From assembly GCA_948562205.1 (NCBI GenBank), contig CAOYAN010000006.1:1636-65635 (forward strand): a DNA stretch of 64,000 bases, in the 5' to 3' direction. Positions 8,201 through 48,234 of this stretch are shown here, piece by piece. Numbering within the stretch: position 1 is the first letter of the stretch; every line of letters begins with the position of its first letter. Made by a program: the position numbers and the translations under genes. A model generated the notes under the pieces. The model did not search any database and was not told the origin of the DNA. It saw only the letters and a program-made list of their open reading frames with translations. The stretch is from an uncultured Clostridia bacterium (GTDB lineage: Bacteria; Bacillota; Clostridia; TANB77; CAG-465).

Positions 8201-9551
8201 TTGTATAAAATTTTTGTGTATTATTATAACTTTCAAGTAATTTTTTATCCTCAAAAGAAAGTATATTAATACTATCTACAGTTACATTAATATTATCTAA
8301 AAAATTTTCTATCATTGTAATTAATCTTAAATGTAAATATTTAATTTCTTCAAGACTAAATAATTCTTTTAGAAAATCATAATTTATTTCAAGTATTCCT
8401 GTATCATCCATGTCTAATATATGTATTTGTAAATCTTCCGCTTGTGTATTATTTGAGTACCATTTAGTTGAATAGATGGACTCTTCTTCATAATTTGCTT
8501 TTGCATTTTGGTATGATAATAATATGCTGTATAAATTCTCTTTTATATCGCTCTTACTTCTAATATCACTTAGTATACTATCATATGGAAAACTTTGATG
8601 CCTAAAACATGACATAGTATTACTAGCTATACTTTTTGCAAGATCTAATACTTTTATATTCTCTTCAATTTTTATTCTAATTGGAAGTGTTGCTATAAAC
8701 AATCCTATTATTTGTTTTTCTCTAAAATTTTTTCTATTTAGTGTCGGTGATCCTATTATAACATCATCTATATTTTTAGTTCTATATATATATACTGATA
8801 AAATTGTAAGAAATAAAATATATGGTGATATTTTATTCTCTTTACAAAATATAATTATTTTATCATTTATTATTTTATCTAATTTTACATTATATCTATT
8901 TGAATAATTAGAAATATTACTAGTTTTATCTTTTAATCTTACTACATTTGAAACCCCATCTAAATATTCTTTATAATATTTGCTATCTTTTATATATTTT
9001 TCACTTTTGCTATATGAATTTTGGAATTCAATAAACTCGATATAACTTGGATATGTAATGTTTTCCTCTACATTTTCTTTTACATTTGTATAAGTTTTAG
9101 TAAATTGTTCTATAATCTTAGAAAAACTCCAAGCATCAGATATTATATGATGTATTCTTAAAAGTACACTACCCTTTGTATTAGAGTATTTTAATATCTT
9201 AAATTCATATAATTTTTTACTAAACATATCAATCTTAGTATTTGCAATATTTTGAATATATTCTTCTATTTCTTGATTTGATAATGATGTCATATCAACT
9301 ACTTCTATTTTCTCATAATTATAATCCTTAATTATTTGATATACATCACTAGAATTCATGTAAATATTAATTCTCATTGCATCATTATTTTTTATAATTT
9401 CATTTATAGCTATATCACAAAACTTAATATCAAACTCTTTATTTATATTAATAATACCAGTTATCATATTTATACTAGTATCACTATACACTTTATCAAC
9501 TAAAAAAATATTTTTTTGTGGGAACGTTAAATCATACATCTTACTATCCAT
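5232..9551 (-). CDS. Single-module non-ribosomal peptide synthetase, C-A-T-R (terminal thioester reductase)
   Basis: C domain HHIISDAWS. A domain LIYTSGSTGNPKGV, YGPTETT, YLTGDLGR and LNGKIDRK. Carrier domain FFEMGADSLMAI. R domain LLTGVTGFLGMHIL plus YxxxK (YVYTKFKAE). Confidence 0.9.
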   Translation of the reverse strand: MDSKMYDLTFPQKNIFLVDKVYSDTSINMITGIININKEFDIKFCDIAINEIIKNNDAMRINIYMNSSDVYQIIKDYNYEKIEVVDMTSLSNQEIEEYIQNIANTKIDMFSKKLYEFKILKYSNTKGSVLLRIHHIISDAWSFSKIIEQFTKTYTNVKENVEENITYPSYIEFIEFQNSYSKSEKYIKDSKYYKEYLDGVSNVVRLKDKTSNISNYSNRYNVKLDKIINDKIIIFCKENKISPYILFLTILSVYIYRTKNIDDVIIGSPTLNRKNFREKQIIGLFIATLPIRIKIEENIKVLDLAKSIASNTMSCFRHQSFPYDSILSDIRSKSDIKENLYSILLSYQNAKANYEEESIYSTKWYSNNTQAEDLQIHILDMDDTGILEINYDFLKELFSLEEIKYLHLRLITMIENFLDNINVTVDSINILSFEDKKLLESYNNTQKFYTKEKSVIDLFEEQVLKNKDNIALIFENKKITYNELNKKANIVANYLLKIGIKRNDIIPIMMKRSEELIITILAILKCRATYLPIDISYPKDRIEYILKNSKSSFGIKDKESNFDFCGINLEYIDFEKLYSSENLNNKNNLNIPFEDSDISYLIYTSGSTGNPKGVLVSSKNLINFVYGINEELNINSSDKIVSITTISFDIFGLEIFLPLVNGATIVLANEVECIDGEKLDSLCLKLDVTVIQTTPTKLKMLLNKTEYIYKMKKILLGGERVSKDFVDRLKSITKACIYDVYGPTETTIWSTIQDITNSLKVSAGRPIANTKIYILDKKNRVLPIGVSGQIAISGEGVSLGYYDNKEATDKNYIYSQKLKEKIYLTGDLGRIDFNSKLSVLDRVDLQVKLNGQRIELEDIEKNIEMYENIKEAIVILKENRFLVCYYIKNDNNEKVDKNDLLKFLYNKLPTYMIPVVYKELEHFPLTLNGKIDRKKISSFDVDFDSTKILEKPKTKLQETLYLVFAKVLGREDFGINDRFFEMGADSLMAIKAQIELLSYGIHIEYKNLLKYQSIKGLEGYIKRNKKENKDNILENYDDYNDYNDILLKNKTVKKDKIKKSGVENILLTGVTGFLGMHILDSFMKNEKGKIYCIIRSKDKKNSNDRFLEILHYYFGEKYDLEIGNRIIILQGNFIEENLGIKKEKYDEIIKNIDLVIHSAACVKHYGYADYFKKVNIDGTKNIAKFCFENNKKLIHISTISVSGNSFEMMNSNEIFNNTIDFDETCFYKKQNLDNIYVYTKFKAEETVLDYMKKGLQANILRVGNLTGRYSDLKFQHNICDNAFSNKIKTFIDIGYFPVSNSDIDIEFTPVDSCADAIIKISEYFNNYHNIFHLYDNNHIKIDMFIKILRELGTDVKIIDDESFVKMVEEISHSKNNDILNGIVNDLNEKNMLNYKTNVSVKSEYTQSYLKELGFCFPKIDNEYIRKYIDYLREIGFIKK

Positions 9552-19923: not shown

Positions 19924-21213
19924 TCAAATTTCTATAAAAATTTTTACTTTTGCTCCAACAGATATATCATTAGATAATTCTAGCTTTCCTCCATGCTTTT
20001 TGCAAAGAATACGACTAATTATTAATCCTAATCCACAATGCTTGCCATCACTTGCAGTAGGTATAATTAAATTGTTTCTTTCTTTTAAAACATCTTCCGA
20101 AAAACCTATACCATCATCTACAATAGAGATTATTAAATAATTTTCTTGTATATTAAATGATAAATTAATTTTTTCTTTGGAATATCTAAGAGCATTATTA
20201 ATTATGTTCTCTAAAATTCTATAAATAATATAAGAATCTATATTTATCTTCTCTTTAAATAACTTCTCTGCCTCTACATCCAATCCTATTCCTTTAGACT
20301 TTGTAATTTGTTTTAAATCTGATTTTACATCTTCAATGAATTTTCGAGTAGAAATTTCTTTACGATTTACTTCTATATCTTCTAAGGCATTAATCGTACG
20401 AATAGAATCTGTGTATCTTTCTAGTCTTTTAGCTGTTTTATTTATATTTGAAGTAATTTCTAAAATTTTTTCTTTACTTAAATTATCATTTTGTAAATTT
20501 GTTTGTAAATATTCTGCATATCCTTCTATAATTGATATTGGATTTCTTAAATCGTGAGCAACTGATGCTTGCAGAAATCTTCTTTCTTCAATCATTTTCC
20601 ATAATTCTTTGTTTGTTTCTTCAAGTATTTGTCGCATTTTTTCAAAAGAATTACAAAGTTTCCCCATTTCATCATTTGATGTATACGATAATTTGAAATC
20701 AAGATTTTTATTTGATATTTGTTCCATTGAATTTTCAAGGAGTTTTAATGGTTTATTTAATTTCTTACGATAAAAAATAAATCCACAAATTAAAATTCCA
20801 ACTATAGAAAATATCATTGGAATTGCTATCATTGCTATTCCACATATTTGATATGCAATTTTTCTTTTTGGAGTTAGCATATCAAAATTATTTTCAATTT
20901 TTTCAATACTTGTTTTTATATCAGATAGTTCAGAGTTATTTATCGAACCATCTTCTGCTCCTGTCAATCTAGGAATATCATACATTTCTTTTCCTAATTC
21001 TGTACTAAATTCAAGTTCTTCCATTCTTCCATCGCTATATGTTATATTTAATGTTACACAAATTGCATTAGAGTTTGGCAATAAATACTCTCGAAATTTT
21101 TGACATCCCCATATACTTAATAATGATAAACATATAACAATGAAAAATGTAATTAAAACTATTAATACAAAATAATTTTGTAATGAACTGCATTTCCTTT
21201 TTAATTTTTCCAT
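19924..21213 (-). CDS. Sensor histidine kinase (2 TM, HAMP-like, HisKA, HATPase)
   Basis: H-box SVAHDLRNPISII and G-box GLGLIISR. Overlaps the response regulator gene by 13 nt. Confidence 0.85.
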   Translation of the reverse strand: MEKLKRKCSSLQNYFVLIVLITFFIVICLSLLSIWGCQKFREYLLPNSNAICVTLNITYSDGRMEELEFSTELGKEMYDIPRLTGAEDGSINNSELSDIKTSIEKIENNFDMLTPKRKIAYQICGIAMIAIPMIFSIVGILICGFIFYRKKLNKPLKLLENSMEQISNKNLDFKLSYTSNDEMGKLCNSFEKMRQILEETNKELWKMIEERRFLQASVAHDLRNPISIIEGYAEYLQTNLQNDNLSKEKILEITSNINKTAKRLERYTDSIRTINALEDIEVNRKEISTRKFIEDVKSDLKQITKSKGIGLDVEAEKLFKEKINIDSYIIYRILENIINNALRYSKEKINLSFNIQENYLIISIVDDGIGFSEDVLKERNNLIIPTASDGKHCGLGLIISRILCKKHGGKLELSNDISVGAKVKIFIEI

Positions 21214-21878
21214 CTATAACCTACTCCCCAAACAGTTTCAATATAATTGTTTCCTGTTATTTCTTGAAATTTATTACGAATTTTTCTTATGTGTTCTTTT
21301 ACAACATTACTATCTCCTTCTGCATCATATCCCCATACTGTTTCATAAATTTTTTCTTTATCAAAAACTTGTCCTTTATTTGTAATTAAATATTCTATTA
21401 AATCAAACTCTTTTTTTGAAAAGGGTATATCTTTATCATAATAAGATATTGTTTGTTTCGATAAATTAACGAGTAGTCCATCAGAAGTTGTAAAAATGGA
21501 AAAAGTATTTTTATTTCTCTCATCTCGACGTAAATGTGCTTCAATACGAGCTGTTAATTCTTTAAGGCTAAAAGGTTTTGTAATATAGTCATCTCCCCCA
21601 TACTGAAATCCATTTATCTTATCTTGCTCTGTAATACGAGCTGTCAAAAAAATAATAGGACAAGATATATGATTTCGTATATTACAGCATAACTCTAATC
21701 CATTTGTTCCAGGCATATTAATATCAAGTATGATAAGGTTTGGCTGATGTCTTAATTCTTCTATAGCCTCATTTACATTATTTGCTATAAGAGTGTTATA
21801 GCCACAGTTTTGCAGATGTGAGGATATTAAATCTGTTATCATTTCTTCATCATCTACAATTAAAATTTTATATTTCAT
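21201..21878 (-). CDS. OmpR/PhoB-family response regulator
   Basis: Receiver KILIVDDEE..DINMPGTNG and winged-helix end ETVWGVGYRW. The likely start is MKYKIL at 21878. Confidence 0.9.
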   Translation of the reverse strand: MKYKILIVDDEEMITDLISSHLQNCGYNTLIANNVNEAIEELRHQPNLIILDINMPGTNGLELCCNIRNHISCPIIFLTARITEQDKINGFQYGGDDYITKPFSLKELTARIEAHLRRDERNKNTFSIFTTSDGLLVNLSKQTISYYDKDIPFSKKEFDLIEYLITNKGQVFDKEKIYETVWGYDAEGDSNVVKEHIRKIRNKFQEITGNNYIETVWGVGYRWKN

Positions 21879-21914
21879 ATCCATGACCCCCATTATATTT
21901 TAATTTATAATTGT

Positions 21915-22924: not shown

Positions 22925-23009
22925 TGGTGCGGGTAAAAGGACTTGAACCTTCACGTCGCTAGACACCGGCTTCTAAGACCGGCGCGTCTGCCAATTCCGC
23001 CATACCCGC
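22925..23009 (-). tRNA. tRNA-Leu (anticodon UAG), class II with long variable arm, encoded CCA
   Basis: Acceptor GCGGGTA/TACCCGC + A + CCA. Anticodon stem CCGGT/GCCGG with loop CTTAGAA. T-arm GAAGG-TTCAAGT-CCTTT. 85 nt. Confidence 0.9.
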
Positions 23010-23186: not shown

Positions 23187-26100
23187 TTACCTACTAATTA
23201 CATATTTTCTAATAAAATTTATTCCAACTATAATTCCAACAATTGACACAAAGAAAATAACAATATATGACAATACATTTATATCATTTGTATCTACAAC
23301 TGGTTCATATACACATTTATTTATTACTACATTTCCTTCAATTACTTTTTCATAATATTTAGATGTACCTTTTTCATTCACTCTATACTCTATTTCATCT
23401 CCATATTCATCATACTTTGGTAATTTTACTTCATATGACCAATTATTATCTGCACTTACTTTTTCTTCAACAACCAATTTATCTTTATTATATACTTGTA
23501 ATACTACACTTCCTGGTCGTTTACCATACTCGTTATTATTATCTTCCCATTTTTTTACTGCTTTTACAAGTATTTTTTCTTCTGGTACTACGAACTCATT
23601 TGTTACTGTATTTTTATCTGTAAGTACTTTTTTATAGAATTTATTTCCACTATATCTTTCATCTATATAGTATTCTATCTCATTTCCTAATTCATCATAT
23701 TTTGGCACTTCAAACTCATAACTCCAATTATTTCTGTCACTTACTTCTGCTTCTGCTATAATGTTTTCTCCAACTTTTAGTTGTAATATTACACTTGTAT
23801 CTCTTTTTCCACCTGCATTTCCATTATCATTCCATACTTTTTTTCCTACTATCTTTATTCTATCTTCTAGTACTACAAACTTATTTGTTATAACGTTTCC
23901 TACTATTTCTTTTATATAAAATTTACTTGACTCTTCATCAAGTTCTTTTTCATCTACTGTATATTCTATTTCATCTCCTGTTTCATTGTATTTTGCAAGT
24001 TCAAATGTATGTTTCCACCCATTAGCACTACTTACTACTTGTTCTGCTACTACTACTCCACCTGTTTTAACTTGTAATGTAATACTATTTGGTCTTTTTC
24101 CTGCCACATTTCCATTGTCATCCCATGTTTTCATTACTTCCAAGTTTATCTTTTCATTTGGTACTTCAAATTTATTTGTTACTGTTATTTCATTATCTTT
24201 CTTTTCTACTTTTTCTTTTGTGTAAAACTTACTTCCTGTATCTTTTTCATCTATTGTATATTCTATTTCATTACCGAGTCTATCGTATTTTGAAAGTTCA
24301 AACTCATATCTCCAGTTGTTTGCTTCATTTACATTTTGTTCTGCTACTACTGTATCATTTGCTTTTACTTGTAATGTTATGCTTTCAGGTCTCTTATCTG
24401 CTTCATTGTTATTATCATTAAAACTCTTTATACCAACAATTTTAATTTTATCTTCTGGTACTGTAAATCTATTTGTTATAGTATTTCCTACTATCTCTTT
24501 TGTATAGAATTTATCTGTTACAAAACTTTTCTCATTTACAGTGTATTCTATCTCACTTCCATCTTCTCTATATTTTAATAAATTTGTAAATGTATGCTTC
24601 CATTCACTTTCTTCTGTTACTTCTGCTTCTGTAATAAGTCTTTCTCCATCAAATATTTGTAAAATTACACTACTTGGTCTTTTATTTGCCTCATTGTTGT
24701 TATCTTCCCATATCTTTGTTACTTCCACGCTTATTCTTTCATCTGGTACTTCATACTTATTTGTTACTATAGTTTCTGTATCTGATATTTTTTCTACTTT
24801 TTCTTTTATATAAAACTTATTTCCTGTATCTTTTTCATCTATTGTATATTCTATTTCATTTCCAAGTCTATCATATTTTGAAAGTTCAAATTCATATCTC
24901 CAGTTGTTTGCTTCATTTACAATTTGTTCTGCTACTACTGTATCATTTGACTTTACTTGTAGCATTATACTTTCAGGTCTCTTATTTGCTTCGTTGTTAT
25001 TATCATTAAAGCTTTTTATACCAATAATTTTAATTTTATCTTCTGGTACTATAAATCTATTTGTTATAATATTTCCTACTATCTCCTTTGTATAAAATTT
25101 ATCTGTAGCAAAGCTTTTCTCATTTACTGTATAGTTTATCTCACTTCCATCTTCTCTATATTTTAATAGATTTGTAAATGTATGTTTCCACTCATCTTCT
25201 TCATTTACTTCTGCCTCTATAATAAGTCTTTCTCCATCAAATATTTGTAGTATTACACTACTTGGCCTTTTATTTGCTTCATTTTCGTTATCTTCCCACA
25301 AACTTTGCACTTCTATATTCTTCTTATACTCTATTTCACTTTTAGCAACTGATATTTTATCTATATAGTTATTTAATTTACTTTCCCTTAAATATAAATA
25401 TCCTGATGTATATGCACTATTAATATATAATGTCTTACTATTTTTTATTTTTCCATTAATTATAAATTCTATATTATCATCTTTTAAAGTTAATTTATCC
25501 TCTCCTACACCCCACTTTATTGTTACTTCGTTTGTCTCACTATTTATGCTAATCAATTCTGGATTTTCACTTAAATTGTATTCTGTTCTTTCTCCATTAG
25601 ATGCTATAAAGATTGCATTTACATCTTCAATATCTATATCTTTATCCACTTCTACTACCACTTCTGTTTGATATAATCCTACATTTTCTACTGTTTCATA
25701 TACATTTTTAGAAGAGCCTTTAATCACAATATTTTCATCTTTGCCATCATTAGTTAAATTCATTTCATATTTTGGATATTCTACATCAATTGATACTCCC
25801 ATAGTACTTACCATAAGTTTACAATTCTCAACATTTGAAATTTTAAAATACATATTATCCACATTATTAGTAAATCTTATATTATGTTTGTTCAGTGTTC
25901 CATCTATCTCAAAAATTTCTAAATCAGTTCCAGCAATTTTTGTATATCCATATATTGGGCTTTCAGATAAAAAGCCATCTTTAAGATACAAATCCTTACC
26001 ATATTTTGTAGCATTTGTTATAGGTTTTAAATTTTTACTGACAAGCCAAGTAAACGGATTCTTCGTAGTTCTTATTGTACTACTACCATATGTAACTTCT

Positions 26101-27059
26101 TTTTCATTACCTACAGTTCCATCATTTGAATAAACCAATGAATTATATTGAGTAGTCCTAGGATCACCACCAGATATGCTCATTAAAATTTGTCCTGTTA
26201 CTCTTATTGCCTTTGGTGTAGTTATTCCATTATTTAACATATTAATAGTCGCACTTTTTCCTTTTCCATCTAAATATCTAGATCCTATTTTTAATGATAA
26301 GTTTCTAATTGGATTTTCTTCATTTTCTTCAATTACAATCAATTTCCATGAACCATATGCATCAAATCCGTCATAGTAATATGGATATGGAATATTACAA
26401 CAATAATATTCTCCATAGCCTTCCTTTTTTACAAAATCAGTTACATCTACAAATCCTACATAATATTTATTATTATTAAAATAAATTTTATCCATTTTAG
26501 TTTCTATGCCATTTTTACTTGGTCCAATAAAAGTTATTGGATATGTTTCTAATAATCTTTGATATGGAGTAATTCTACTATTTACTTCTATTACTAAATA
26601 TGCCTTATATATTTTATCATTAGGATTATCTTTTTCTAATACTGCCATAGTAGAGTTTCCTTTTACAATACAGTTATTATTGCTATCATAAACCTCTCTA
26701 TCTTTTTCATATTCTTTTAACCATTCATACTCTTTTAATAACGATAATTTCGAATAATATTGCTGATTTACAGACATATATTTTTGCCAAACTAAAACAC
26801 CTGATATATTATCACATCCTGTAGCATTAAATTTATATGGTCCTATTATATCTTGAATAGTTTCAAAACCATTAAGTTTTATTGCTTCTGTTGTTCTTCC
26901 TTGTTCTTGAATATATCTATTTATATTTTCATCCTTTTTTATATCTCTTTTAATTATTACTTCTTTTCCAATTTGAAAAATTATTGTAAGTAAACCTACT
27001 ATTATTACTGATAATAATACTACAGTAATTTTACTTTTAAATTTCTTTTTTTTATTCAT
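23187..27059 (-). CDS. Large surface protein: signal/anchor, unique ~550-aa head, array of Cna-B-type (isopeptide-type) repeat domains, C-terminal TM anchor
   Basis: Repeats of (V/I)xKxW(E/D)DNxNxxxKRPxS(V/I)xLQ(V/I)...NxW.YxFxxLxKY...GxEIxYT(V/I)xE, the classic Cna-B pattern. The C-terminus is YEPVVDTNDINVLSYIVIFFVSIVGIIVGINFIRKYVISR. The likely start is MNKKKKF at 27059 after GGGAG; the track start is 27074. Confidence 0.85.
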   Translation of the reverse strand: MNKKKKFKSKITVVLLSVIIVGLLTIIFQIGKEVIIKRDIKKDENINRYIQEQGRTTEAIKLNGFETIQDIIGPYKFNATGCDNISGVLVWQKYMSVNQQYYSKLSLLKEYEWLKEYEKDREVYDSNNNCIVKGNSTMAVLEKDNPNDKIYKAYLVIEVNSRITPYQRLLETYPITFIGPSKNGIETKMDKIYFNNNKYYVGFVDVTDFVKKEGYGEYYCCNIPYPYYYDGFDAYGSWKLIVIEENEENPIRNLSLKIGSRYLDGKGKSATINMLNNGITTPKAIRVTGQILMSISGGDPRTTQYNSLVYSNDGTVGNEKEVTYGSSTIRTTKNPFTWLVSKNLKPITNATKYGKDLYLKDGFLSESPIYGYTKIAGTDLEIFEIDGTLNKHNIRFTNNVDNMYFKISNVENCKLMVSTMGVSIDVEYPKYEMNLTNDGKDENIVIKGSSKNVYETVENVGLYQTEVVVEVDKDIDIEDVNAIFIASNGERTEYNLSENPELISINSETNEVTIKWGVGEDKLTLKDDNIEFIINGKIKNSKTLYINSAYTSGYLYLRESKLNNYIDKISVAKSEIEYKKNIEVQSLWEDNENEANKRPSSVILQIFDGERLIIEAEVNEEDEWKHTFTNLLKYREDGSEINYTVNEKSFATDKFYTKEIVGNIITNRFIVPEDKIKIIGIKSFNDNNNEANKRPESIMLQVKSNDTVVAEQIVNEANNWRYEFELSKYDRLGNEIEYTIDEKDTGNKFYIKEKVEKISDTETIVTNKYEVPDERISVEVTKIWEDNNNEANKRPSSVILQIFDGERLITEAEVTEESEWKHTFTNLLKYREDGSEIEYTVNEKSFVTDKFYTKEIVGNTITNRFTVPEDKIKIVGIKSFNDNNNEADKRPESITLQVKANDTVVAEQNVNEANNWRYEFELSKYDRLGNEIEYTIDEKDTGSKFYTKEKVEKKDNEITVTNKFEVPNEKINLEVMKTWDDNGNVAGKRPNSITLQVKTGGVVVAEQVVSSANGWKHTFELAKYNETGDEIEYTVDEKELDEESSKFYIKEIVGNVITNKFVVLEDRIKIVGKKVWNDNGNAGGKRDTSVILQLKVGENIIAEAEVSDRNNWSYEFEVPKYDELGNEIEYYIDERYSGNKFYKKVLTDKNTVTNEFVVPEEKILVKAVKKWEDNNNEYGKRPGSVVLQVYNKDKLVVEEKVSADNNWSYEVKLPKYDEYGDEIEYRVNEKGTSKYYEKVIEGNVVINKCVYEPVVDTNDINVLSYIVIFFVSIVGIIVGINFIRKYVISR
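24126..25298 (-). repeat. Tandem duplication of a two-Cna-B-domain unit (588 + 585 nt) inside the adhesin gene
   Basis: Unit 1 runs 25298-24711 (196 aa, starting WEDNENEANKRPSSVILQIFDGERLI...). Unit 2 runs 24710-24126 (195 aa, starting WEDNNNEANKRPSSVILQIFDGERLI...). By eye about 90% identical at protein level. Confidence 0.8.
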
Positions 27060-27100
27060 GAATTCATCTCCCATTCTTTATTTTTCTCCTATTTTTATAT

Positions 27101-27109
27101 AATATACCA
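27101..27109 (-). promoter_or_regulatory. Candidate extended -10 promoter (TGgTATATT) for adhesin 1
   Basis: Minus strand TGG-TATATT with a poor -35. Conserved in the copy upstream of adhesin 2. About 45 nt upstream of the start codon. Confidence 0.35.
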
Positions 27110-27127
27110 TTTTTAAAAAATACTGAA

Positions 27128-27173
27128 TGACTTATTATACTTGTTTACATGACCTTTTGTACTTGTTTTTACA
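27128..27173 (-). promoter_or_regulatory. Tandem direct repeats (24 + 22 nt), candidate activator-binding site abutting the -35 position
   Basis: Gene orientation: TGTAAAAACAAGTACAAAAGGTCA (27173-27150) then TGTAAACAAGTATAATAAGTCA (27149-27128). The same pair occurs upstream of adhesin 2. Confidence 0.4.
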
Positions 27174-27209
27174 CACAAAAAGCACTGGTACTATTACTTA
27201 GTATCAGTG
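27171..27209 (-). terminator. Hairpin plus T-run ending the small upstream transcription unit (or attenuator)
   Basis: Minus strand CACTGATAC-loop-GTACCAGTG (27209-27183; 9 bp with one A-C mismatch) followed by CTTTTTGTGTG. Conserved in copy 2. Confidence 0.45.
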
Positions 27210-27261
27210 TATATATTTTAAGGCAGAATCTACCCTTGTTATTTCATTTTCTCTTGTGTTT

Positions 27262-27327
27262 TTAAAACTTAGTTGTGTGTGTGTGTGTGTGTAGTTTTAT
27301 CATGTTTGTGTTAATTTTAGTTACCAT
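27262..27327 (-). CDS. Small upstream ORF, 21 codons in this copy, truncated relative to copy 2 by the dinucleotide-tract frame
   Basis: ATG 27327 (an alternative ATG is at 27333). Peptide MVTKINTNMIKLHTHTHTTKF, stop TAA 27264-27262. Whether it is translated is unknown. Confidence 0.3.
   Translation of the reverse strand: MVTKINTNMIKLHTHTHTTKF
27274..27292. repeat. Dinucleotide simple-sequence repeat (TG)9T, equal to A(CA)9 in gene orientation
   Basis: Read directly: ttgtgtgtgtgtgtgtgtgtgtag. The paralogous site at 48122-48130 has (TG)4T. Confidence 0.95.
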
Positions 27328-27364
27328 AATCATTTTCCTTTCTTTTTCTTTTGATTACACATTT

Positions 27365-27393
27365 ATCCTATCATTTCTTTAAACTTTTTTCAA
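27365..27393 (-). promoter_or_regulatory. Candidate promoter of the small upstream unit (copy 1)
   Basis: Minus strand TTGAAA (27393-27388), 17 nt, TAGGAT (27370-27365). Confidence 0.35.
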
Positions 27394-27428
27394 GTACTAT
27401 TTATTTTTTAAATTTTTTTATTTTTTCT

Positions 27429-27457
27429 TTGACAAACTTTTGTTTGTTTGATATAAT
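27429..27457 (+). promoter_or_regulatory. Consensus promoter for rmuC
   Basis: TTGACA (27429-27434), 17 nt, TATAAT (27452-27457). Confidence 0.6.
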
Positions 27458-27479
27458 TATCTTGTTTTAGAAAAGAGGT

Positions 27480-28772
27480 ATGAATATGGACATTACAATG
27501 ATACTTTTAATTATATGTATAGTTTTGCTTGCTATAAATATAATTATCACACTTTCAAAAAGTAAAAACGAGAATAATTCAAAAGAATTTATTCAAGAAT
27601 TTAATTCTATTAGACAAGAACTTTCTACAATGCTTATGCAAACACGTGAAGAAATACAAAAAAATCTTGGAATTAAAATAAATGAAAATGCAAATACTCA
27701 ACAAATGCAACTAGCAAATCTTACAAATTTAAATGAGACAAAACTTGAAAATACACGTAAAAACATGGAAGAAAAACTAGAACTTATTAGAAAAACGGTT
27801 GAAGATAGACTACTTCTACTTCAAAAAGATAATAGTGAAAAACTTGAAAAAATGCGTGCTACAGTTGATGAAAAACTTCAAAGTACATTAGAGCAAAGAC
27901 TTGGTGAATCATTTAAAATTGTAAATGAAAGATTAGAGTCTGTATACAAAGGACTTGGTGAAATGCAAACACTTGCTCAAGGTGTTGGTGATTTAAAGAA
28001 AGTATTTACAAACGTAAAATCTAGAGGGTACTGGGGAGAAATTCAGCTAAGTAACATTTTAGAACAGTTCTTAACTAAAGAACAATACTCAGCAAATGTT
28101 AAAACTAAACCAAAATCTAATGACCTTGTTGAATTTGCTATTAAACTTCCAGGTAGAAATGATAATGAATTTGTATGGCTGCCAGTAGACTCTAAATTTC
28201 CTATTGAAGACTATTCAAGACTTGTTGATGCTGAAGATATAGGAGATGTTGCACTAGTTCAAGAGTCTAGAAAAAAACTTGAAAATTCTATAAAATCATT
28301 TGCAAAAGATATATATGAAAAATATATTGAAGCTCCATATACAACAGACTTTGGTATAATGTTCCTACCTACTGAGAGTCTATACTGTGAAGTATTAAAA
28401 AACACAGGTCTTTGTGAATTTATATCACAAAAATATAGAATTGTTGTATCTGGACCTACTACATTTGTAGCTCTACTTAATAGTTTACAAATGGGATTTA
28501 AAACACTTGCAATTGAAAAAAGAACTAGTGAAGTATGGCAATTACTTGGAATGGTAAAATCTGAATTCTCTAAATTTGGCGAATTACTTGATAAGACAAA
28601 TAAAAAGCTTTTAGAGATATCTTCTACTATGGAACTAGCATCTAGAAAGACCAGAACAATAGAGAGAAAATTAAAAAAAGTTGAGGCACTACCTGTTTCA
28701 AATGAAGAAGAATTCTACTCAACAGATAATCTTTTACCAGAATATGAAATATCTGATACTGAATCAGAATAA
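27480..28772 (+). CDS. rmuC: DNA recombination protein RmuC
   Basis: N-terminal TM, long coiled-coil, then RGYWGEIQLSNILEQ and a C-terminal nuclease-like region typical of RmuC. The start may be the second ATG at 27486. Confidence 0.85.
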   Translation: MNMDITMILLIICIVLLAINIIITLSKSKNENNSKEFIQEFNSIRQELSTMLMQTREEIQKNLGIKINENANTQQMQLANLTNLNETKLENTRKNMEEKLELIRKTVEDRLLLLQKDNSEKLEKMRATVDEKLQSTLEQRLGESFKIVNERLESVYKGLGEMQTLAQGVGDLKKVFTNVKSRGYWGEIQLSNILEQFLTKEQYSANVKTKPKSNDLVEFAIKLPGRNDNEFVWLPVDSKFPIEDYSRLVDAEDIGDVALVQESRKKLENSIKSFAKDIYEKYIEAPYTTDFGIMFLPTESLYCEVLKNTGLCEFISQKYRIVVSGPTTFVALLNSLQMGFKTLAIEKRTSEVWQLLGMVKSEFSKFGELLDKTNKKLLEISSTMELASRKTRTIERKLKKVEALPVSNEEEFYSTDNLLPEYEISDTESE

Positions 28773-42395: not shown

Positions 42396-45300
42396 TTATT
42401 TTTTTCTATTAGATTTACTTTTTCTAATAAATAAAATTATAGTAACTATTCCAACTATTGCTAATATAAATGTACAAATATATATAATTATATCTATATC
42501 TGAAGTATCTACAACTGGTTCATATATACATTTGTTAATTACTACATTTCCCTCTAACCTTTTTTCATAATATTTAGATGTTTCTTTCTCATCTACTGTA
42601 TACTTAATCTCATCTCCATACTCATCATATTTTGGTAGTTTAAACTCATATGACCAATTATTATCTGCACTTACTTTTTCTTCAGCAACCAATTTATCTT
42701 TATTATATACTTGTAATACTACACTTTCTGGACGTTTGCCATACTCACTATTATTATCTTCCCATTTTTTTACTGCTTTTACTAACACTTTTTCTTCTGG
42801 TACAACAAACTCATTTGTTATTGTATTTTTATCTGTAATTACTTTTTTATAGAATTTATTTCCACTATCTCTTTCATCTATATAATACTCTATTTCATTA
42901 CCAAGTTCATCATATTTTGACACTTCAAACTCATATCTCCAATTATTTTTGTCACTTACTTCTGCTTCTGCTATAATATTTTCTCCAACTTTTAGTTGTA
43001 ATATTACACTGGTATCTCTTTTTCCGCCTGCATTTCCATTATCATTCCATACTTTTATTCCTACTATTTTTATTCTATCCTCTGGTACTACAAATTTATT
43101 TGTTATTACATTTCCTACTATATTTTTTATATAGAATTTACCAATTTCTTTATCAAGTTCTTTCTCATCTACAGTATATTCTATTTCATCTCCTGTTTCG
43201 TTGTATTTTGCAAGTTCAAATGTATGTTTCCACTCATTAGCACTACTTACTACTTGTTCTGCTACTACTACTCCATTATTTTTTATTTGTAATGTTATAC
43301 TTTCTGGCCTTTTTCCTGCTTCATTTTCATTGTCATCCCATATTTTCATTACTTCCAAGTTTATCATCTCATCTGGTACTTTAAATTTATTTGTTACTGT
43401 TGTTTCATTTGTAATTTCTTTCTCATAGAACTTACTTCCTACATCTCTTTCATCTATATGATATTCTATTTCATTTTCATATCTATCATATTTTGCAAGT
43501 TCAAATTCATAACTAAAGTTATTTCCCTCATTTACTTCATGTTCTGTTATTACTTCATTATTTGCTATTACTTGTAGTACTACACTATTTGGTCTCTTTT
43601 TAGCGAAGTTTTCATTATCTTCCCATACTTTTCTTCCTACTATTTTTATTTTTTCTTCTGGTACTACAAATCTATTTGTTATTGTATTTCCTACTATCTC
43701 TTTTACATAGAATTTATTTGTATATTCTTCATCTACTGTATATATTTTTTCATTACCTAAACTATCATACTTTGGAAGTTCAAAAGTATATCTCCAATTT
43801 TCTTCTTCACTTACAATATGACTTGCTACAACTCTTTCTCCATCTTTTACTTGTAATGTAACACTATCTGGTCTTTTTCCTGCTTCATTGTTATTGTCAT
43901 TCCATATTTTTACAACTTCTACATTTATTCTTTCATCTGGTACTTCAAATTTATTTGTTACTGTTGTCTCATTCTCTATCTTTTCTATTTTTTCCTTTAT
44001 ATAAAACTTATTTCCTGTATCTTTTTCATCTATTATATATTCTATTTTATTACCTAGTCTATCGTATTTTGAAAGTTCAAATTCATATCTAAAATTATTT
44101 GCTTCATTTACAGTTTGTTCTGCTACTACTATATCATTTGATTTTACTTGTAGTGTTATACTTTCTGGTCTCTTACCTGCTTCATTTTCATTATCATTAA
44201 AACTTTTTACCCCAATAATTCTTATTTTATCCTCTGGTACTGTAAATCTATTTGTTATAGTATTTCCTACTATTTCTTTTGTATAGAATTTATATGTAGC
44301 AAAACTCTTTTCATTTACTGTATAATTTATTTCTTCTCCATCTTCTCTATATTTTAGTAAATTTGTAAATGTATGTTTCCACTCATCTTCTTCATTTACT
44401 TCTGCTTCTGTAATAAGTCTTTCTCCATCAAATATTTGTAAAGTTACACTACTTGGTCTTTTATTTGCTTCATTATTATTGTCTTTCCATATCTTTGTTA
44501 CTTCTATATCCTTTAGCTTTATACTATTTGTTATATTATATCCTTCATATCTTGTTTCATAATTTTGTACTTCGTCCTCTACTATTTCATACTCATATTC
44601 TCTTGTATTACTTGCATATACTGGTATATTTTCAAATGTATATTGCCAATTATCTGCTTCTGTTACTTCTTTTGTTTCATATTCTACTCCATCTTGTAAT
44701 AATTTTACTGTTATACTAGATGGTCTTTGCTCATATTTATTATCTAAATCATTCCATGTTTTTGTTCCACTTATTTCTGTCCTTACATCTTCTTTATGTA
44801 TTTCTACATTTACTTGATTTGAATATATTCCCTCTACATTATCTATTACAGTACCAAATGGATCTTTTGCTCTCCAATTTGTACTAAACATATTGTTTGC
44901 TGATGTTATTATTGTATCATCTTCGGGTGCTTGCATATTTATTAATACAAATACTACATTATTTCCAGATAGTTCCATCTCTGTTCCGTCACGATTATAT
45001 CTTAAATCTACACATATTGATTTAACACGAGTTTTATCTACTTCATCTGTTAGTTCCATCCATTTTTCTGGTACTTCTGTTAATTTTCCTGGATTTACTT
45101 CTTCTGAATAATATACCACTGGTGCATATCCTTTTGATACTGCATATTCTGTATCTACTCCTAAAAATTTACCTTTCCATCCACTACTTATATCATTACC
45201 ACTTTCATCATAAATTGTTTCAAGTGTATCATATATTATTAAGTCTTTTAAGCTATTTGCTCCTGTTGTTACTCTTAGTTTATATGTATATTCACTTCCA

Positions 45301-47903
45301 GCTGTTGCTTCTGCTGTTTCTTCTACAAATTTTCCTTTTGTAAGATCAGTTCTTACTTGTTTTATTACTGCTTGTTGTGATGATACTGCATGGGTTATGT
45401 TTAATGTATTTGATGCATATGCAACATTTTCTCTTGTATCTCCATCATTATCTATATCATTTGCTAGTGGGTCATATTGACCATCATCTTTATTACTACC
45501 ACTATAACTATATTCTTGATTATTCCACATACCATATACATAATTTTTATATATTGTACCATATTCTAATATACTATCATATGGTATTTCTGCTTTTATT
45601 TTTACATATATGCCATCATTATAAGCATTTCCAGTAAAATAATTTTCCAAATAATAGCTCCAATCTATTTCATTTAAATTATATATTATACTTATTTTTA
45701 TTCTTCCACTATTTCTATAATTATAATCTATATCTACAGTAGAATATTCTTTTATATAATTTTCCAACTCCGCTGGTGTATTAAATTTTGTTCCATCTTT
45801 TAACTTTAAATTTCTATATACATATTGATTACCTATTCTATAATCTATATTTATACTATTTTTTATTTCTTCTTTACTCATTACTAAATTCATACCATTT
45901 GGTAATATATCATATTGTTTTATGATTACCTCTTTATCTACATTATAACAATTTAAATCTAAAATACTTTTTAAAGTATAGTCTACTTCATATTTTTCTT
46001 CTTTTACATTATTTGTTATTGTAGAGCTTTTACTAGTAGATAAGTTAAAAGATCCACTATTTATACTAGCATATGAATATGCTCTTTGCATATATTTACC
46101 ATATGTATTCATATCATATTCTGCTATTTTTAATGTTGATGGTGTTTTATAACTATCAACTGTTACTTCATTTGCTAAAGTCCTATTTCCTTCATTATCT
46201 TTTTTATATATTTGTAAATATCCAAAATTATATATTGACTGAATACTTGATTTACAATCTTGTGTGTGTATATTTATATTTACTTGTATTTTTTCACTAT
46301 TAATATTAGTAAAATACAAAGTTTTATCCAAATTCTTTATTACTATTTTTATTCCTACTATATCTTTTCTATCAAAAGTTATTGTTTTAATACTATTACT
46401 TGTTGTTTCTTCACAATACACTACATAATCGTTTGTATCCTTATATCTTACCTGTATTTCAAACTCATATCCTATTAATGTATCTCCTTTACTCCCACTA
46501 TACTTATTATATGTATAAAATATTGGTATTTTTATCTCCGTAAAATTATATTCATTATCATTTAATTTCGTTACTTCCCCATTTTCTCTTGTTATATATA
46601 AAAGATCATCTCCTATTTCTACATCCATTATACTATCTGTATAAAATACATTAGAGTATAAATACCAGCTTGATATATCTCCACTATTTTTTACTTTATT
46701 TAAAGATAAATTTATACTCATAGGTTTACTTTTATATATTCCATATAAATCTCCTTTATATTCAAAATCAAATGCTACTAGGTTTACAGTACTACTTGCT
46801 TCCGTAAGCTTCTGCATTTCTTCTTCATCTTCATATCTTCCCCATATTTCTGCTGTATTTGTTACACTATCTCCTTCATTATATTTATTCTTTGGATATC
46901 CTATATAATAATATTTAGTAGGAAATGAGCCAGAAGCGCTTAAATAATAATATATATTATTTTCTTTTGGTTCTAATACATTTAAATCATTATCATATAG
47001 AACTACATCTTCTGGTAAATTTAATTTTATACAATTGTTTTTATCATTATTATATATTATATTACTATTTTCATCTAATGCATATATTACGCCTACAGTT
47101 CTATTATAGTTATAAGTATATCTAACCCAATAATAATCATCTAATATATCTTCTATTTTAGTATAATCAGCATTTGTACCTGCTGTTGCTTGATTTTTTA
47201 ATATATATGACTTCTTAGTTGATGTATAATGAAAAATACATATATCTGACTCTTTTACTATTATTTCTTCTGCATTTACAATATTTTCTTTTATCTTAGC
47301 ACTATATGCTAAATCTGTTTGTATTTTAAATTTAGGTAATAAATTATATACTATCTGTATTACTCCCTCAAAATGTTCATTTTCTTCTATTACTTTATTA
47401 TTTATAAATGTATATATATTACTCTCCTCATTATAGCTATAACTCCAGTCATATTTTTTTGTTGTATCAGTTAGTTTGTCGGCTGCTATAGTTGCATTAG
47501 GATAATATCTTTTATTCAACTCACTTCCACTATCTCCAAAACCTGGTATTGTTATTTCTATTTCTCCTGGCTGATATCCTTTATTTGTTGTACATGCATA
47601 ATTTATTTGCATACATAATTGTTTTGTTTCACTTTCACTTACTGCATTCCATGTAAATTCTGTTATAGCTTGATTTGGTGTATCACTGCTTCTATCATAC
47701 ATTACTAATTGTATATTCCAATTTTCATCATCTACTTCTAATGCATTTGTATTTTTTGTACTATTTACTGTTATTGTTATCATTGTACTTATTAAAAATA
47801 CCCAAAGCATTATTGTAAATATCGATATCTTTCTTTTTAATCTATTTTTTCTTATCTTATTTCTTTTGTCTTTTTTATCATTGTTTATATTTATTTCTTT
47901 CAT
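42396..47903 (-). CDS. Very large surface protein (1835 aa): signal peptide, ~1050-aa unique head, about 9 Cna-B-type repeats, C-terminal TM anchor
   Basis: Same Cna-B repeat pattern as 23187-27059. By eye the last ~350 aa are about 90% identical to it. The C-terminus is YEPVVDTSDIDIIIYICTFILAIVGIVTIILFIRKSKSNRKK. RBS AGGAGGT. Confidence 0.85.
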   Translation of the reverse strand: MKEININNDKKDKRNKIRKNRLKRKISIFTIMLWVFLISTMITITVNSTKNTNALEVDDENWNIQLVMYDRSSDTPNQAITEFTWNAVSESETKQLCMQINYACTTNKGYQPGEIEITIPGFGDSGSELNKRYYPNATIAADKLTDTTKKYDWSYSYNEESNIYTFINNKVIEENEHFEGVIQIVYNLLPKFKIQTDLAYSAKIKENIVNAEEIIVKESDICIFHYTSTKKSYILKNQATAGTNADYTKIEDILDDYYWVRYTYNYNRTVGVIYALDENSNIIYNNDKNNCIKLNLPEDVVLYDNDLNVLEPKENNIYYYLSASGSFPTKYYYIGYPKNKYNEGDSVTNTAEIWGRYEDEEEMQKLTEASSTVNLVAFDFEYKGDLYGIYKSKPMSINLSLNKVKNSGDISSWYLYSNVFYTDSIMDVEIGDDLLYITRENGEVTKLNDNEYNFTEIKIPIFYTYNKYSGSKGDTLIGYEFEIQVRYKDTNDYVVYCEETTSNSIKTITFDRKDIVGIKIVIKNLDKTLYFTNINSEKIQVNINIHTQDCKSSIQSIYNFGYLQIYKKDNEGNRTLANEVTVDSYKTPSTLKIAEYDMNTYGKYMQRAYSYASINSGSFNLSTSKSSTITNNVKEEKYEVDYTLKSILDLNCYNVDKEVIIKQYDILPNGMNLVMSKEEIKNSINIDYRIGNQYVYRNLKLKDGTKFNTPAELENYIKEYSTVDIDYNYRNSGRIKISIIYNLNEIDWSYYLENYFTGNAYNDGIYVKIKAEIPYDSILEYGTIYKNYVYGMWNNQEYSYSGSNKDDGQYDPLANDIDNDGDTRENVAYASNTLNITHAVSSQQAVIKQVRTDLTKGKFVEETAEATAGSEYTYKLRVTTGANSLKDLIIYDTLETIYDESGNDISSGWKGKFLGVDTEYAVSKGYAPVVYYSEEVNPGKLTEVPEKWMELTDEVDKTRVKSICVDLRYNRDGTEMELSGNNVVFVLINMQAPEDDTIITSANNMFSTNWRAKDPFGTVIDNVEGIYSNQVNVEIHKEDVRTEISGTKTWNDLDNKYEQRPSSITVKLLQDGVEYETKEVTEADNWQYTFENIPVYASNTREYEYEIVEDEVQNYETRYEGYNITNSIKLKDIEVTKIWKDNNNEANKRPSSVTLQIFDGERLITEAEVNEEDEWKHTFTNLLKYREDGEEINYTVNEKSFATYKFYTKEIVGNTITNRFTVPEDKIRIIGVKSFNDNENEAGKRPESITLQVKSNDIVVAEQTVNEANNFRYEFELSKYDRLGNKIEYIIDEKDTGNKFYIKEKIEKIENETTVTNKFEVPDERINVEVVKIWNDNNNEAGKRPDSVTLQVKDGERVVASHIVSEEENWRYTFELPKYDSLGNEKIYTVDEEYTNKFYVKEIVGNTITNRFVVPEEKIKIVGRKVWEDNENFAKKRPNSVVLQVIANNEVITEHEVNEGNNFSYEFELAKYDRYENEIEYHIDERDVGSKFYEKEITNETTVTNKFKVPDEMINLEVMKIWDDNENEAGKRPESITLQIKNNGVVVAEQVVSSANEWKHTFELAKYNETGDEIEYTVDEKELDKEIGKFYIKNIVGNVITNKFVVPEDRIKIVGIKVWNDNGNAGGKRDTSVILQLKVGENIIAEAEVSDKNNWRYEFEVSKYDELGNEIEYYIDERDSGNKFYKKVITDKNTITNEFVVPEEKVLVKAVKKWEDNNSEYGKRPESVVLQVYNKDKLVAEEKVSADNNWSYEFKLPKYDEYGDEIKYTVDEKETSKYYEKRLEGNVVINKCIYEPVVDTSDIDIIIYICTFILAIVGIVTIILFIRKSKSNRKK

Positions 47904-47948
47904 ATATAAATTTACCTCCTATTCTTTATTTTTCTCCTATTTTTATAT

Positions 47949-47957
47949 AATATACCA
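47949..47957 (-). promoter_or_regulatory. Candidate extended -10 promoter (TGgTATATT) for adhesin 2
   Basis: Identical to the element at 27101-27109. Confidence 0.35.
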
Positions 47958-47975
47958 TTTTTCAAAAATACTGAA

Positions 47976-48021
47976 TGACCTATTATACTTGTTTACATGA
48001 CCTATTGTACTTGTTTTTACA
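47976..48021 (-). promoter_or_regulatory. Tandem direct repeats (24 + 22 nt), copy 2
   Basis: Gene orientation: TGTAAAAACAAGTACAATAGGTCA (48021-47998) then TGTAAACAAGTATAATAGGTCA (47997-47976). Confidence 0.4.
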
Positions 48022-48023
48022 TA

Positions 48024-48057
48024 CAAAAATCACTGGTACTATCTCTTAGTATCAGTG
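48024..48057 (-). terminator. Hairpin plus T-run, copy 2
   Basis: Minus strand CACTGATAC-loop-GTACCAGTG (48057-48031) then ATTTTTGTATG. The small-ORF stop TGA (48054-48052) lies in the 5' arm. Confidence 0.45.
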
Positions 48058-48165
48058 TATATATTTTAAGGCATAATAACCCCTTGTTATTTCATTTTCT
48101 CTTATGTTTTTAAATGTTAGTTGTGTGTGTAGTTTTATCATACTCGTACTTGTTTTAGTTACCAT
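48052..48165 (-). CDS. Small upstream ORF, 37 codons in this copy
   Basis: MVTKTSTSMIKLHTQLTFKNIRENEITRGYYALKYIH. GAGG lies 9 nt before ATG 48165. Track ORF 48052-48234 extends through the predicted promoter and is probably too long. Confidence 0.3.
   Translation of the reverse strand: MVTKTSTSMIKLHTQLTFKNIRENEITRGYYALKYIH
48122..48130. repeat. Short dinucleotide tract (TG)4T at the position of the (TG)9T tract of copy 1
   Basis: Read directly: ttgtgtgtgtag. Confidence 0.9.
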
Positions 48166-48205: not shown

Positions 48206-48234
48206 ATTTTAACATCTAAAAAAACATTTTTCAA
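48206..48234 (-). promoter_or_regulatory. Candidate promoter of the small upstream unit (copy 2)
   Basis: Minus strand TTGAAA (48234-48229), 17 nt, TAAAAT (48211-48206). Confidence 0.4.

Follow-up and report, generated by a model that had tools for sequence, protein, structure and literature searches.

A candidate antitermination switch driven by CA-repeat slippage in the leaders of Cna_B adhesin genes from an uncultured gut-associated Firmicute

The window analyzed here is a 64-kb stretch of DNA from an uncultured Clostridia bacterium (GenBank contig CAOYAN010000006.1, positions 1,636–65,635), in which two genes coding for large adhesins with Cna_B repeats are each preceded by a copy of the same leader module containing a CA-dinucleotide tract (Table 1). 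The guanine + cytosine (GC) content is ~26%, two contigs of the metagenome-assembled genome (MAG) GCA_948491045.1 match the window at 100% identity, and the sporulation genes SipL and YunB occur on related contigs; the host is an uncultured, low-GC, gut-associated Firmicute and a spore-former. Both copies of the module are read on the minus strand, and their coordinates in the window were verified by script. The original prediction, made from the letters of the DNA, had placed the module upstream of both adhesin genes; this was borne out, and every coordinate of it that we checked was correct. Each copy starts with a promoter-like site (P1) and continues with a ribosome-binding site (RBS), a small open reading frame (ORF) containing the (CA)n tract, and a hairpin followed by a T-run; farther 3′ lie two direct repeats and a conserved block, after which comes the RBS of the adhesin gene. 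Alignment of the copies from the leader RBS to the adhesin RBS gave 228 identical positions out of 251 (91%) outside the tract, which is the lone indel between them, again as originally proposed; 5′ of the –35 hexamer the two are unrelated. An nhmmer search with a leader profile, run over the window and 256 kb of related loci, recovered no additional copies.

The two copies differ in the reading frame that follows the tract. With its nine CA units, copy 1 is currently in what we term the OFF frame: in a simulation of the tract frames, its ORF stops 52 nt 5′ of the hairpin, matching the earlier estimate of a frame of 21 codons ending about 50 nt before it. The remainder of this ORF would be read in frame given 7 or 10 CA units, in agreement with the proposal that other unit numbers restore the downstream frame. 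Copy 2, with four units, is in the ON frame, and its predicted length of 37 codons and the placement of its TGA within the 5′ arm of the hairpin were confirmed. The tract of copy 1, which reads (TG)9 on the plus strand, is the sole non-AT dinucleotide run of at least five units across the 64 kb, and shuffled sequences gave an expectation of 0.0–0.1 terminator-like sites per region. The anatomy of the module exceeds chance expectation.

Table 1. Features of the two leader modules, the adhesin genes and their surroundings (positions are those of the window)
Feature	Position	Strand	Evidence	Description
Promoter P1, copy 1	27365..27393	-	promoter scan	TTGAAA, 17-nt spacer, TAGGAT; TG one base 5′ of second hexamer
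RBS, copy 1	27341-27336	-	script check	AAAGGA
Leader ORF as now read, copy 1	27262..27341 (including RBS)	-	script check	MVTKINTNMIKLHTHTHTTKF*, 21 codons; ATG 27327, TAA 27264-27262
CA tract, copy 1	27274..27292	-		A(CA)9, (TG)9T on plus strand; encodes His-Thr repeat
Rest of leader ORF, now out of frame, copy 1	27204..27275	-	simulation; alignment with in-frame homologs	QLSFKNTRENEITRVDSALKYIH, TGA 27206-27204
Attenuator / intrinsic terminator, copy 1	27176..27209	-		11-bp stem with internal A.C mismatch, 5-nt loop; arms CACTGATACTA/TAGTACCAGTG at 27209-27183, CTTTTTG 27182-27176
Direct repeats, copy 1	27127..27162	-		two 14-nt repeats, GTACAAAAGGTCAT and GTATAATAAGTCAT; period 22, variable 8-nt spacer
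Conserved block, copy 1	27089..27109	-	comparison of leader types	TGGTATATTATATAAAAATAG
Adhesin 1 gene	23187..27074	-		intact 1295-aa ORF, 7 Cna_B repeats; likely start ATG 27059 after GGGAGA
Promoter P1, copy 2	48206..48234	-	promoter scan	TTGAAA, 17-nt spacer, TAAAAT; TG one base 5′ of TAAAAT
Leader ORF, copy 2	48052..48165	-	script check	ON frame, 37 codons; TGA 48054-48052, 6 nt inside hairpin
CA tract, copy 2	48122..48130	-	script check	A(CA)4
Attenuator, copy 2	48024..48057	-		hairpin (48057-48031) and T-run
Direct repeats and conserved block, copy 2	47937..48010	-		repeats 47975-48010, block 47937-47957
Adhesin 2 gene	42396..47903	-		1835 aa, 8 Cna_B repeats
Invariant 16 nt 5′ of hairpin	27210-27225; 48058-48073	-		TGCCTTAAAATATATA
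ORF antisense to leader	27149-27265; 47997-48113	+		hydrophobic, 38 aa, both copies
C-terminal ends of adhesins	23187-23330; 42396-42530	-		...EPVVDT[NS]D, hydrophobic segment, basic tail
Stretch missing from strain L005	9749-27411			17.7 kb
tRNA-Leu	22925-23009
OmpR-type two-component system	19924-21893
Single-module nonribosomal peptide synthetase (NRPS)	5232-9551			1439 aa; condensation, adenylation, carrier and terminal reductase domains

Relatives of the leader were sought by protein searches, with the hypothetical in-frame (10-unit) version of the copy 1 peptide as query, which recovered five called small ORFs; a profile built from these five brought the total to 16 clusters, with 18 small-ORF clusters counted in another tally of the profile search. 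An exhaustive HMMER search found 19 representatives among 1.84 billion proteins, and the family is hence small and lineage-restricted. In total, the set comprises 10 types of leader DNA, from at least six chromosomal loci, and 32 different small-ORF peptides. The peptides are 37–43 residues long across the family, follow the consensus MVTKxxxxM[IN][KE]LHT(HT)n..KN..NEITRG.YALKYI[HSD] with one to four HT units (corresponding to 4, 7, 10 or 13 CA units), and have no match in Pfam or NCBIfam. All these relatives derive from called ORFs of at least 29 aa, a form of sampling that out-of-frame leaders escape. A scan of a genome collection with GGTCATGTAAACAAGTATAA returned just two chance matches, to Dyadobacter and to an unrelated Clostridia MAG. 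Metagenomes, scanned twice with leader patterns fitting all leader loci in the set, gave no match, and nor did two scans of viral contigs. Logan contigs beside RmuC end at the repeated leader (27316–27318 or 27380) and are therefore uninformative on the tract.

The leader loci are RmuC/tRNA-Leu (copy 1 of the window), acyltransferase/hisS (copy 2 and the samples L024–L032), Peptidase_U32 (L015, L016, L019), YunB/189-aa gene (L017, L018), FtsW (L021), and methyltransferase (L022, L023); L014 has the 189-aa gene upstream and no YunB on its contig. Where the gene downstream is complete or identifiable, it codes for a surface protein with Cna_B (L014, L015, L024, L025) or MucBP (L017) domains. Tract lengths differ between strains in this family, a point on which the original prediction had recommended a survey of related genomes. 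As a separate observation, L020 has an insertion sequence element (350–1626, with an rve-family transposase on the opposite strand) right behind a complete leader, where the adhesin RBS would otherwise lie.

When these leaders are compared, the loci are homologous from the –35 hexamer of P1 onward; in all leader types P1 has the form TTGAAAAA, a variable 17-nt spacer and TGnTAnnnT. P1 is followed by a variable 5′ untranslated region, an RBS with ATGGTAACTAAA that is kept in all leader types, the invariant ATTATGGTAACTAAA, four variable codons, and ATGAT/AAACT; the CA tract then begins at codon 12–13 in every family member. On its 3′ side are two or three variable codons, AAAAAC with a conserved middle segment, the invariant TGCCTTAAAATATATA, the hairpin, and an invariant TTTTTG. 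The 16 nt of TGCCTTAAAATATATA, adjoining the 5′ side of the hairpin, are unchanged in every leader, including the L024 type with its differing frame; the constraint on them acts on nucleotides.

To these conserved parts corresponds a consistent geometry of the three reading frames, as seen when tracts were simulated from –2 to +2 units in all 10 leader types. In every type one frame runs on to the hairpin, where it stops 6 nt into the 5′ arm (in the L024 type, 8 nt before the hairpin instead), and the remaining two frames stop 52 or 59 nt 5′ of it. The off-frame stops are built into the variable codons just after the tract. The first of these (X1) is always nTA (CTA, GTA, ATA). The second (X2) is always purine-initial, in six different codons (AGT, ACA, GAT, GGC, ATT, AAT), creating a TAA or TAG in one off frame, and the third (X3) always ends in T before AAA, in four different codons (TTT, TCT, GTT, CTT), creating a TAA in the other. 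Among the 29 peptides with a [KR][ND][TI] motif, the residues fit this rule, X1 deviating twice and X3 once. To judge from the codons used, both off-frame stops are held by a constraint on nucleotides, not on amino acids.

The hairpin itself is supported by covariation: over nine leader types, five of its 11 pairs have changed on both sides, and 92.9% of the alignment cells are paired as against 23–51% in slid controls. The stem is 10–12 bp long over the leader types, with stabilities from –9.9 (copy 1) to –13.6 kcal/mol; an A.C mismatch in mid-stem is present in seven of the 10 types, and the T5G run that follows is invariant. Since the A.C of the minus strand reads G.T on the other, a simple scan calls the hairpin on the plus strand only; we assign the functional hairpin to the minus strand on account of the T5 run and the comparative data. 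RNAalifold additionally proposed a possible 7-bp long-range helix between codons 6–8 and the end of the U-run plus 4 nt (27301–27307 with 27173–27179 in copy 1; columns 20–26 with 163–169 of alignment A4). It has two covarying positions (UA:5/CG:3 and AU:4/GC:2), 90.5% of its cells are paired, and it is perfect in six of the 10 leader types; as a model, it is possibly real. A helix of the start region of the small ORF with the TGGTATATTATA block showed no covariation, is disrupted in L022, and was not relied upon. Pairing of the (CA)n tract with GUGUGU past the T-run is confined to copy 1, and structure prediction displayed no alternative antiterminator hairpin, though no search dedicated to one was run.

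The tract varies in length among the relatives, with unit numbers of 3, 4, 7, 9 and 10 observed, and ~13 deduced from peptides with four HT units; L020, L021 and L022 have interrupted or compound tracts, that of L021 (8036–8066) consisting of two adjacent slippage-prone runs, (AC)9 and then (AT)6. The peptides P0002 and P0006 differ solely by HTHT, that is, by 10 versus 4 units. Likewise, between the promoter and a point 42 nt beyond the tract, the leaders L015 and L016 differ by one base in the RBS spacer and in having 10 versus 4 units; farther 3′ the two diverge, and this shows that leaders also recombine. At the Peptidase_U32 locus, one sample has 10 units and two have 4 (the run of L019 having one extra C), and the copy 2 locus has 4 units in 10 samples, namely the window and nine others. 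Tracts that are short (3–4 units) or interrupted are probably stable. The preponderance of in-frame tracts in the set is an artifact of ascertainment and uninformative on switching, because the relatives were found via called ORFs.

Next to this conservation of layout, the peptide shows little sign of constraint at the amino acid level. Over the 10 DNA types, mean pairwise differences at the three codon positions are 0.16/0.21/0.22 on the 5′ side of the tract and 0.20/0.20/0.12 on its 3′ side, with no excess at the third position; after the tract, synonymous and non-synonymous differences number 28 and 215 in frame, versus 88 and 146 or 91 and 160 in the shifted frames. The amino acids of the leader peptide look unconstrained where they vary, and the conserved peptide segments are invariant at all three codon positions. 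Such a lack of synonymous excess is expected where translating matters and not the peptide itself. In the L024 type, a 1-nt deletion alters the final residues (..ITGQNLP*) and the nucleotides beneath are unchanged, a combination that fits a cis-acting translated leader and not a trans-acting small protein; the latter is also disfavored by the codon-position test and by the lack of a Pfam or NCBIfam match.

The region 3′ of the terminator carries elements that bear on whether the adhesin gene belongs to the same transcription unit as its leader. Direct repeats of the form GTAYAATAGGTCAT occur there in nine of the 10 leader types, with a period of 22 (18 in L019) and a variable spacer; within the window they were found only at the two leaders. 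They are followed by a variable stretch of ~20 nt, the near-invariant TGGTATATTATATAAAAATAG, in which four of the nine types with this block show one or two substitutions, and the adhesin RBS. The repeats are possibly the site of a regulator, and the TGGTATATTATATAAAAATAG block, by its resemblance to such elements, may be the extended –10 of a second, activator-dependent promoter; the promoter scan skips it because it has no –35 hexamer. The L024 type, represented by nine samples at the copy 2 locus, lacks both the direct repeats and the block, and P1 is the sole promoter-like site of its entire intergenic region. With P1 alone, the adhesin gene there must be transcribed through the terminator, which makes the leader the core device and the direct repeats and block an add-on.

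We consider it probable that these features together form a device for translation-dependent antitermination, switched by slippage of the CA repeat. What is observed at its base is the anatomy, the conservation, the frame geometry, the covariation of the hairpin and the tract-length differences between strains; from these we infer that the hairpin terminates transcription, that translation relieves this, and that slippage of the tract is frequent within populations. According to this proposal, P1 would transcribe the adhesin gene through a leader consisting of a short translated ORF and a terminal intrinsic terminator. With 4, 7, 10 or 13 CA units (ON), a ribosome would reach the TGA 6 nt inside the 5′ arm and block the hairpin while RNA polymerase crosses the T-run, so that transcription proceeds into the adhesin gene. 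With any other unit number (OFF), translation would halt at either of the two conserved stops, 52 or 59 nt upstream, the hairpin would form, and most transcripts would terminate. Slipped-strand changes of (CA)n would then let each adhesin locus switch independently. Copy 1, with nine units, would be OFF and a single unit away from ON; copy 2, with four, would be ON, its tract probably being too short for frequent switching. Of the two modes suggested in the original prediction, the ribosome-dependent attenuation is thus favored by the conserved geometry of stop and hairpin, the retained off-frame stops, the covariation and the P1-only L024 type, with termination itself as the predicted step; in the other, the toggling of a small peptide or small RNA, a peptide acting alone is weakened by the lack of synonymous excess and of any known family.

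Several observations weigh against this proposal. The hairpin, which has an A.C mismatch and a run of five U residues, is modest; some of the tracts are short (3–4 units) or interrupted (L020, L022), and the four units of copy 2 are constant over 10 samples. The only leaders sampled independently of ORF calling are the two of the window, one ON and the other OFF. Neither the invariant 16 nt 5′ of the hairpin nor the invariant N-terminal codons are accounted for by an attenuator, and the modeled long-range helix hints at a structured, terminated RNA. Finally, the repeats and –10-like block of nine of the 10 types could be a second promoter that renders read-through from P1 dispensable. In a rival reading, P1, the small ORF and the terminator would make up an independent small gene, with a stand-alone transcript giving a small protein or a structured small RNA, and the adhesin would use an activator-dependent promoter of its own (direct repeats and TGGTATATT); the tract would then toggle the small product only, and this may act on the adhesin promoter or elsewhere. 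The constant period and variable spacer of the repeats, along with the conserved –10-like block, speak for such a promoter; the hairpin and T-run resemble an ordinary terminator at the end of a gene; the possible 7-bp helix would pair the ends of the transcript as in end-paired stable small RNAs; and the N-terminus MVTKxxxxM[IN][KE]LHT is kept in the 32 peptides with single substitutions only. We nevertheless regard an independent small gene as unlikely: the L024 type has no repeats, block or promoter-like site besides P1, the peptide shows neither purifying selection nor a known family, and each module invariably lies in cis to an adhesin gene of its own, an arrangement that a trans-acting product would not require. 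Such a gene would also leave unexplained the early stops in both off frames and the fixed in-frame stop in the hairpin.

Neutral or decaying polymorphism, in which the CA run would be no more than a mutable part of a leader, its length differences due to drift or gene conversion, and copy 1 a leader broken by a frameshift and devoid of regulatory function, seems to us distinctly unlikely. An out-of-frame example is known only once, the short tract at the copy 2 locus is stable over 10 samples, mosaic leaders (L015 versus L016) show that conversion occurs, and the tracts of L020, L021 and L022 are interrupted. Yet the tract sits at the same place in every family member, distant ones included; lengths of 4, 7, 10 and 13 imply transit via out-of-frame states, the off-frame stops survive changes of codon, an intact 1295-aa adhesin ORF lies behind the OFF leader, and no other GC-containing dinucleotide run of at least five units exists in the 64 kb. 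Clostridial adhesin genes carrying c-di-GMP (cyclic di-GMP) riboswitches or invertible switches are known, and the leader could in principle belong to another class of that sort, or be a type I toxin-antitoxin locus encoding its toxin in the 38-aa ORF, hydrophobic in both window copies, that lies antisense to it. We hold all of these to be highly improbable. A riboswitch was rejected for want of an Rfam match (the window gave none at the gathering threshold, nor did 26950–27550 give any up to E = 10). An invertible DNA switch of the cwpV or flg type was rejected since the inverted repeats around the leader and promoter are AT-rich chance pairs, none of them common to both copies. As to a toxin, the antisense ORF has no RBS and is interrupted by stops in six of nine leader types, contrary to a conserved hydrophobic ORF, and is on that account a by-product of the A-rich sense strand and not a gene.

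The kind of mechanism proposed here, slippage-driven antitermination by a translating ribosome, is already known, and the statement in the original prediction that no system of this form had been described was wrong. In Streptococcus gallolyticus, another Firmicute, experiments demonstrated that GCAGA repeats within a 38-aa leader ORF of the pil1 locus shift its stop relative to a premature terminator ahead of a collagen-adhesin pilus operon, which thereby undergoes phase variation (Danne et al., 2014; PMC3894217). A leader stop 28–39 nt before the hairpin gives low expression, and one within or beyond the hairpin gives high expression; deletion of the terminator locks the locus ON, mutation of the start codon or RBS keeps expression low, and no switching occurs once each of the three frames contains a stop, expression then being slightly above the low state; pil3 behaves alike (PMC3894217). 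In the literature that we searched, repeat-driven attenuation through a leader peptide was described for S. gallolyticus only. The CA leader resembles pil1 and pil3 in the order of its parts (promoter, RBS and short ORF with a non-triplet repeat, premature terminator, and a gene for a collagen-adhesin/Cna_B protein of the sortase type), in stop-to-hairpin distances that fall on the same sides of the 28-nt threshold (in the CA leader, 6 nt inside the hairpin for one frame and 52 or 59 nt before it for the others), in its presence at more than one adhesin locus per genome, and in its Gram-positive, gut-associated host. In four further peptides of our set (P0007, P0009, P0015, P0019) the hairpin-arm TGA is lost (with a W in three, consistent with TGG) and the ORF extends through or past the hairpin; by analogy with pil1, these variants would be ON states too.

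The two devices also differ in several ways. The repeat unit is CA, present in 3 to ~13 copies and forming a small part of an otherwise conserved ORF, as against 13–22 units of GCAGA; the CA leader has a single ON frame and conserved stops in both OFF frames, whereas pil1 is OFF in its reference frame and ON in the remaining two; and most copies of the CA leader add the direct repeats and –10-like block. Its host is an uncultured low-GC spore-former, in which the device is a prediction from sequence. We view the pil1 and CA leaders as analogs, not homologs; a relationship appears unlikely in view of the differing repeat units and peptides, though this was not judged from an alignment. What is new is the dinucleotide tract, the mirrored frames, the spread over many adhesin loci and the extra element 3′ of the terminator.

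Comparisons with other regulatory systems help to place the leader. As in the attenuation of trp, his and leu operons, the position of the ribosome on a leader ORF would decide the fate of a downstream terminator hairpin; unlike in these, the input would be a heritable frameshift and not the supply of charged tRNA, and the ORF has no run of regulatory codons. In the CA leader the ribosome itself appears to be the antiterminator. At hmw1A of Haemophilus influenzae, the level of expression follows the number of repeats in the 5′ untranslated region, where these make up one arm of a long hairpin that RNase III cleaves (Rapun-Araiz et al., 2025; PMC12721329). This system shares with ours a transcribed repeat tract 5′ of an adhesin gene that acts in cis at the RNA level, but it has no leader ORF or frame logic. 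In the classical phase variation of Neisseria opa, a repeat tract within the adhesin coding region itself is subject to frameshifts (cited in PMC3894217); there, too, slippage shifts a frame and switches a surface protein, whereas in our case the structural gene stays intact and the frameshift, located in an upstream leader, would act on transcription.

The adhesin genes and their surroundings provide further context. The C-terminal Cna_B stalks of the two adhesins are 79% identical, and their N-terminal 580–1130 residues are unrelated; both terminate alike (Table 1). Neither has a canonical LPXTG motif, and we saw no sortase gene adjoining either of them. Exchange of the adhesin N-terminal domains may make use of the conserved leader and the conserved C-terminal stalk as recombination handles. 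At the copy 2 locus (acyltransferase to hisS), nine other samples (L024–L032) have a different, 525-aa Cna_B adhesin together with a shorter leader type. A 17.7-kb stretch of the window is missing from the 99%-identical strain JGI 3300006217 (L005), where RmuC is followed directly by a tRNA gene and the NRPS gene; it comprises adhesin 1 and its leader, tRNA-Leu, an OmpR-type two-component system and transporter-like genes, and looks like a strain-variable island beside a tRNA. The adjacent NRPS is 95% identical in L005. A wider arrangement, which we think quite unlikely, would be a combinatorial genome-wide system, in which at least six adhesin loci with independent CA-tract switches are joined by cross-talk through the paired-end leader RNA or the direct repeats, placing a deterministic layer over the stochastic one.

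For annotation, our results mean that adhesin 1 is probably phase-OFF and not constitutive. They also indicate what to search other genomes for: small ORFs that contain a non-triplet repeat and end inside a terminator. The leader carries the sequence signatures of selection on the frame logic itself and is an independent version, in a distant uncultured host, of what is known from S. gallolyticus, which suggests that devices of this kind are a general solution of Gram-positive gut bacteria for the stochastic display of adhesins.

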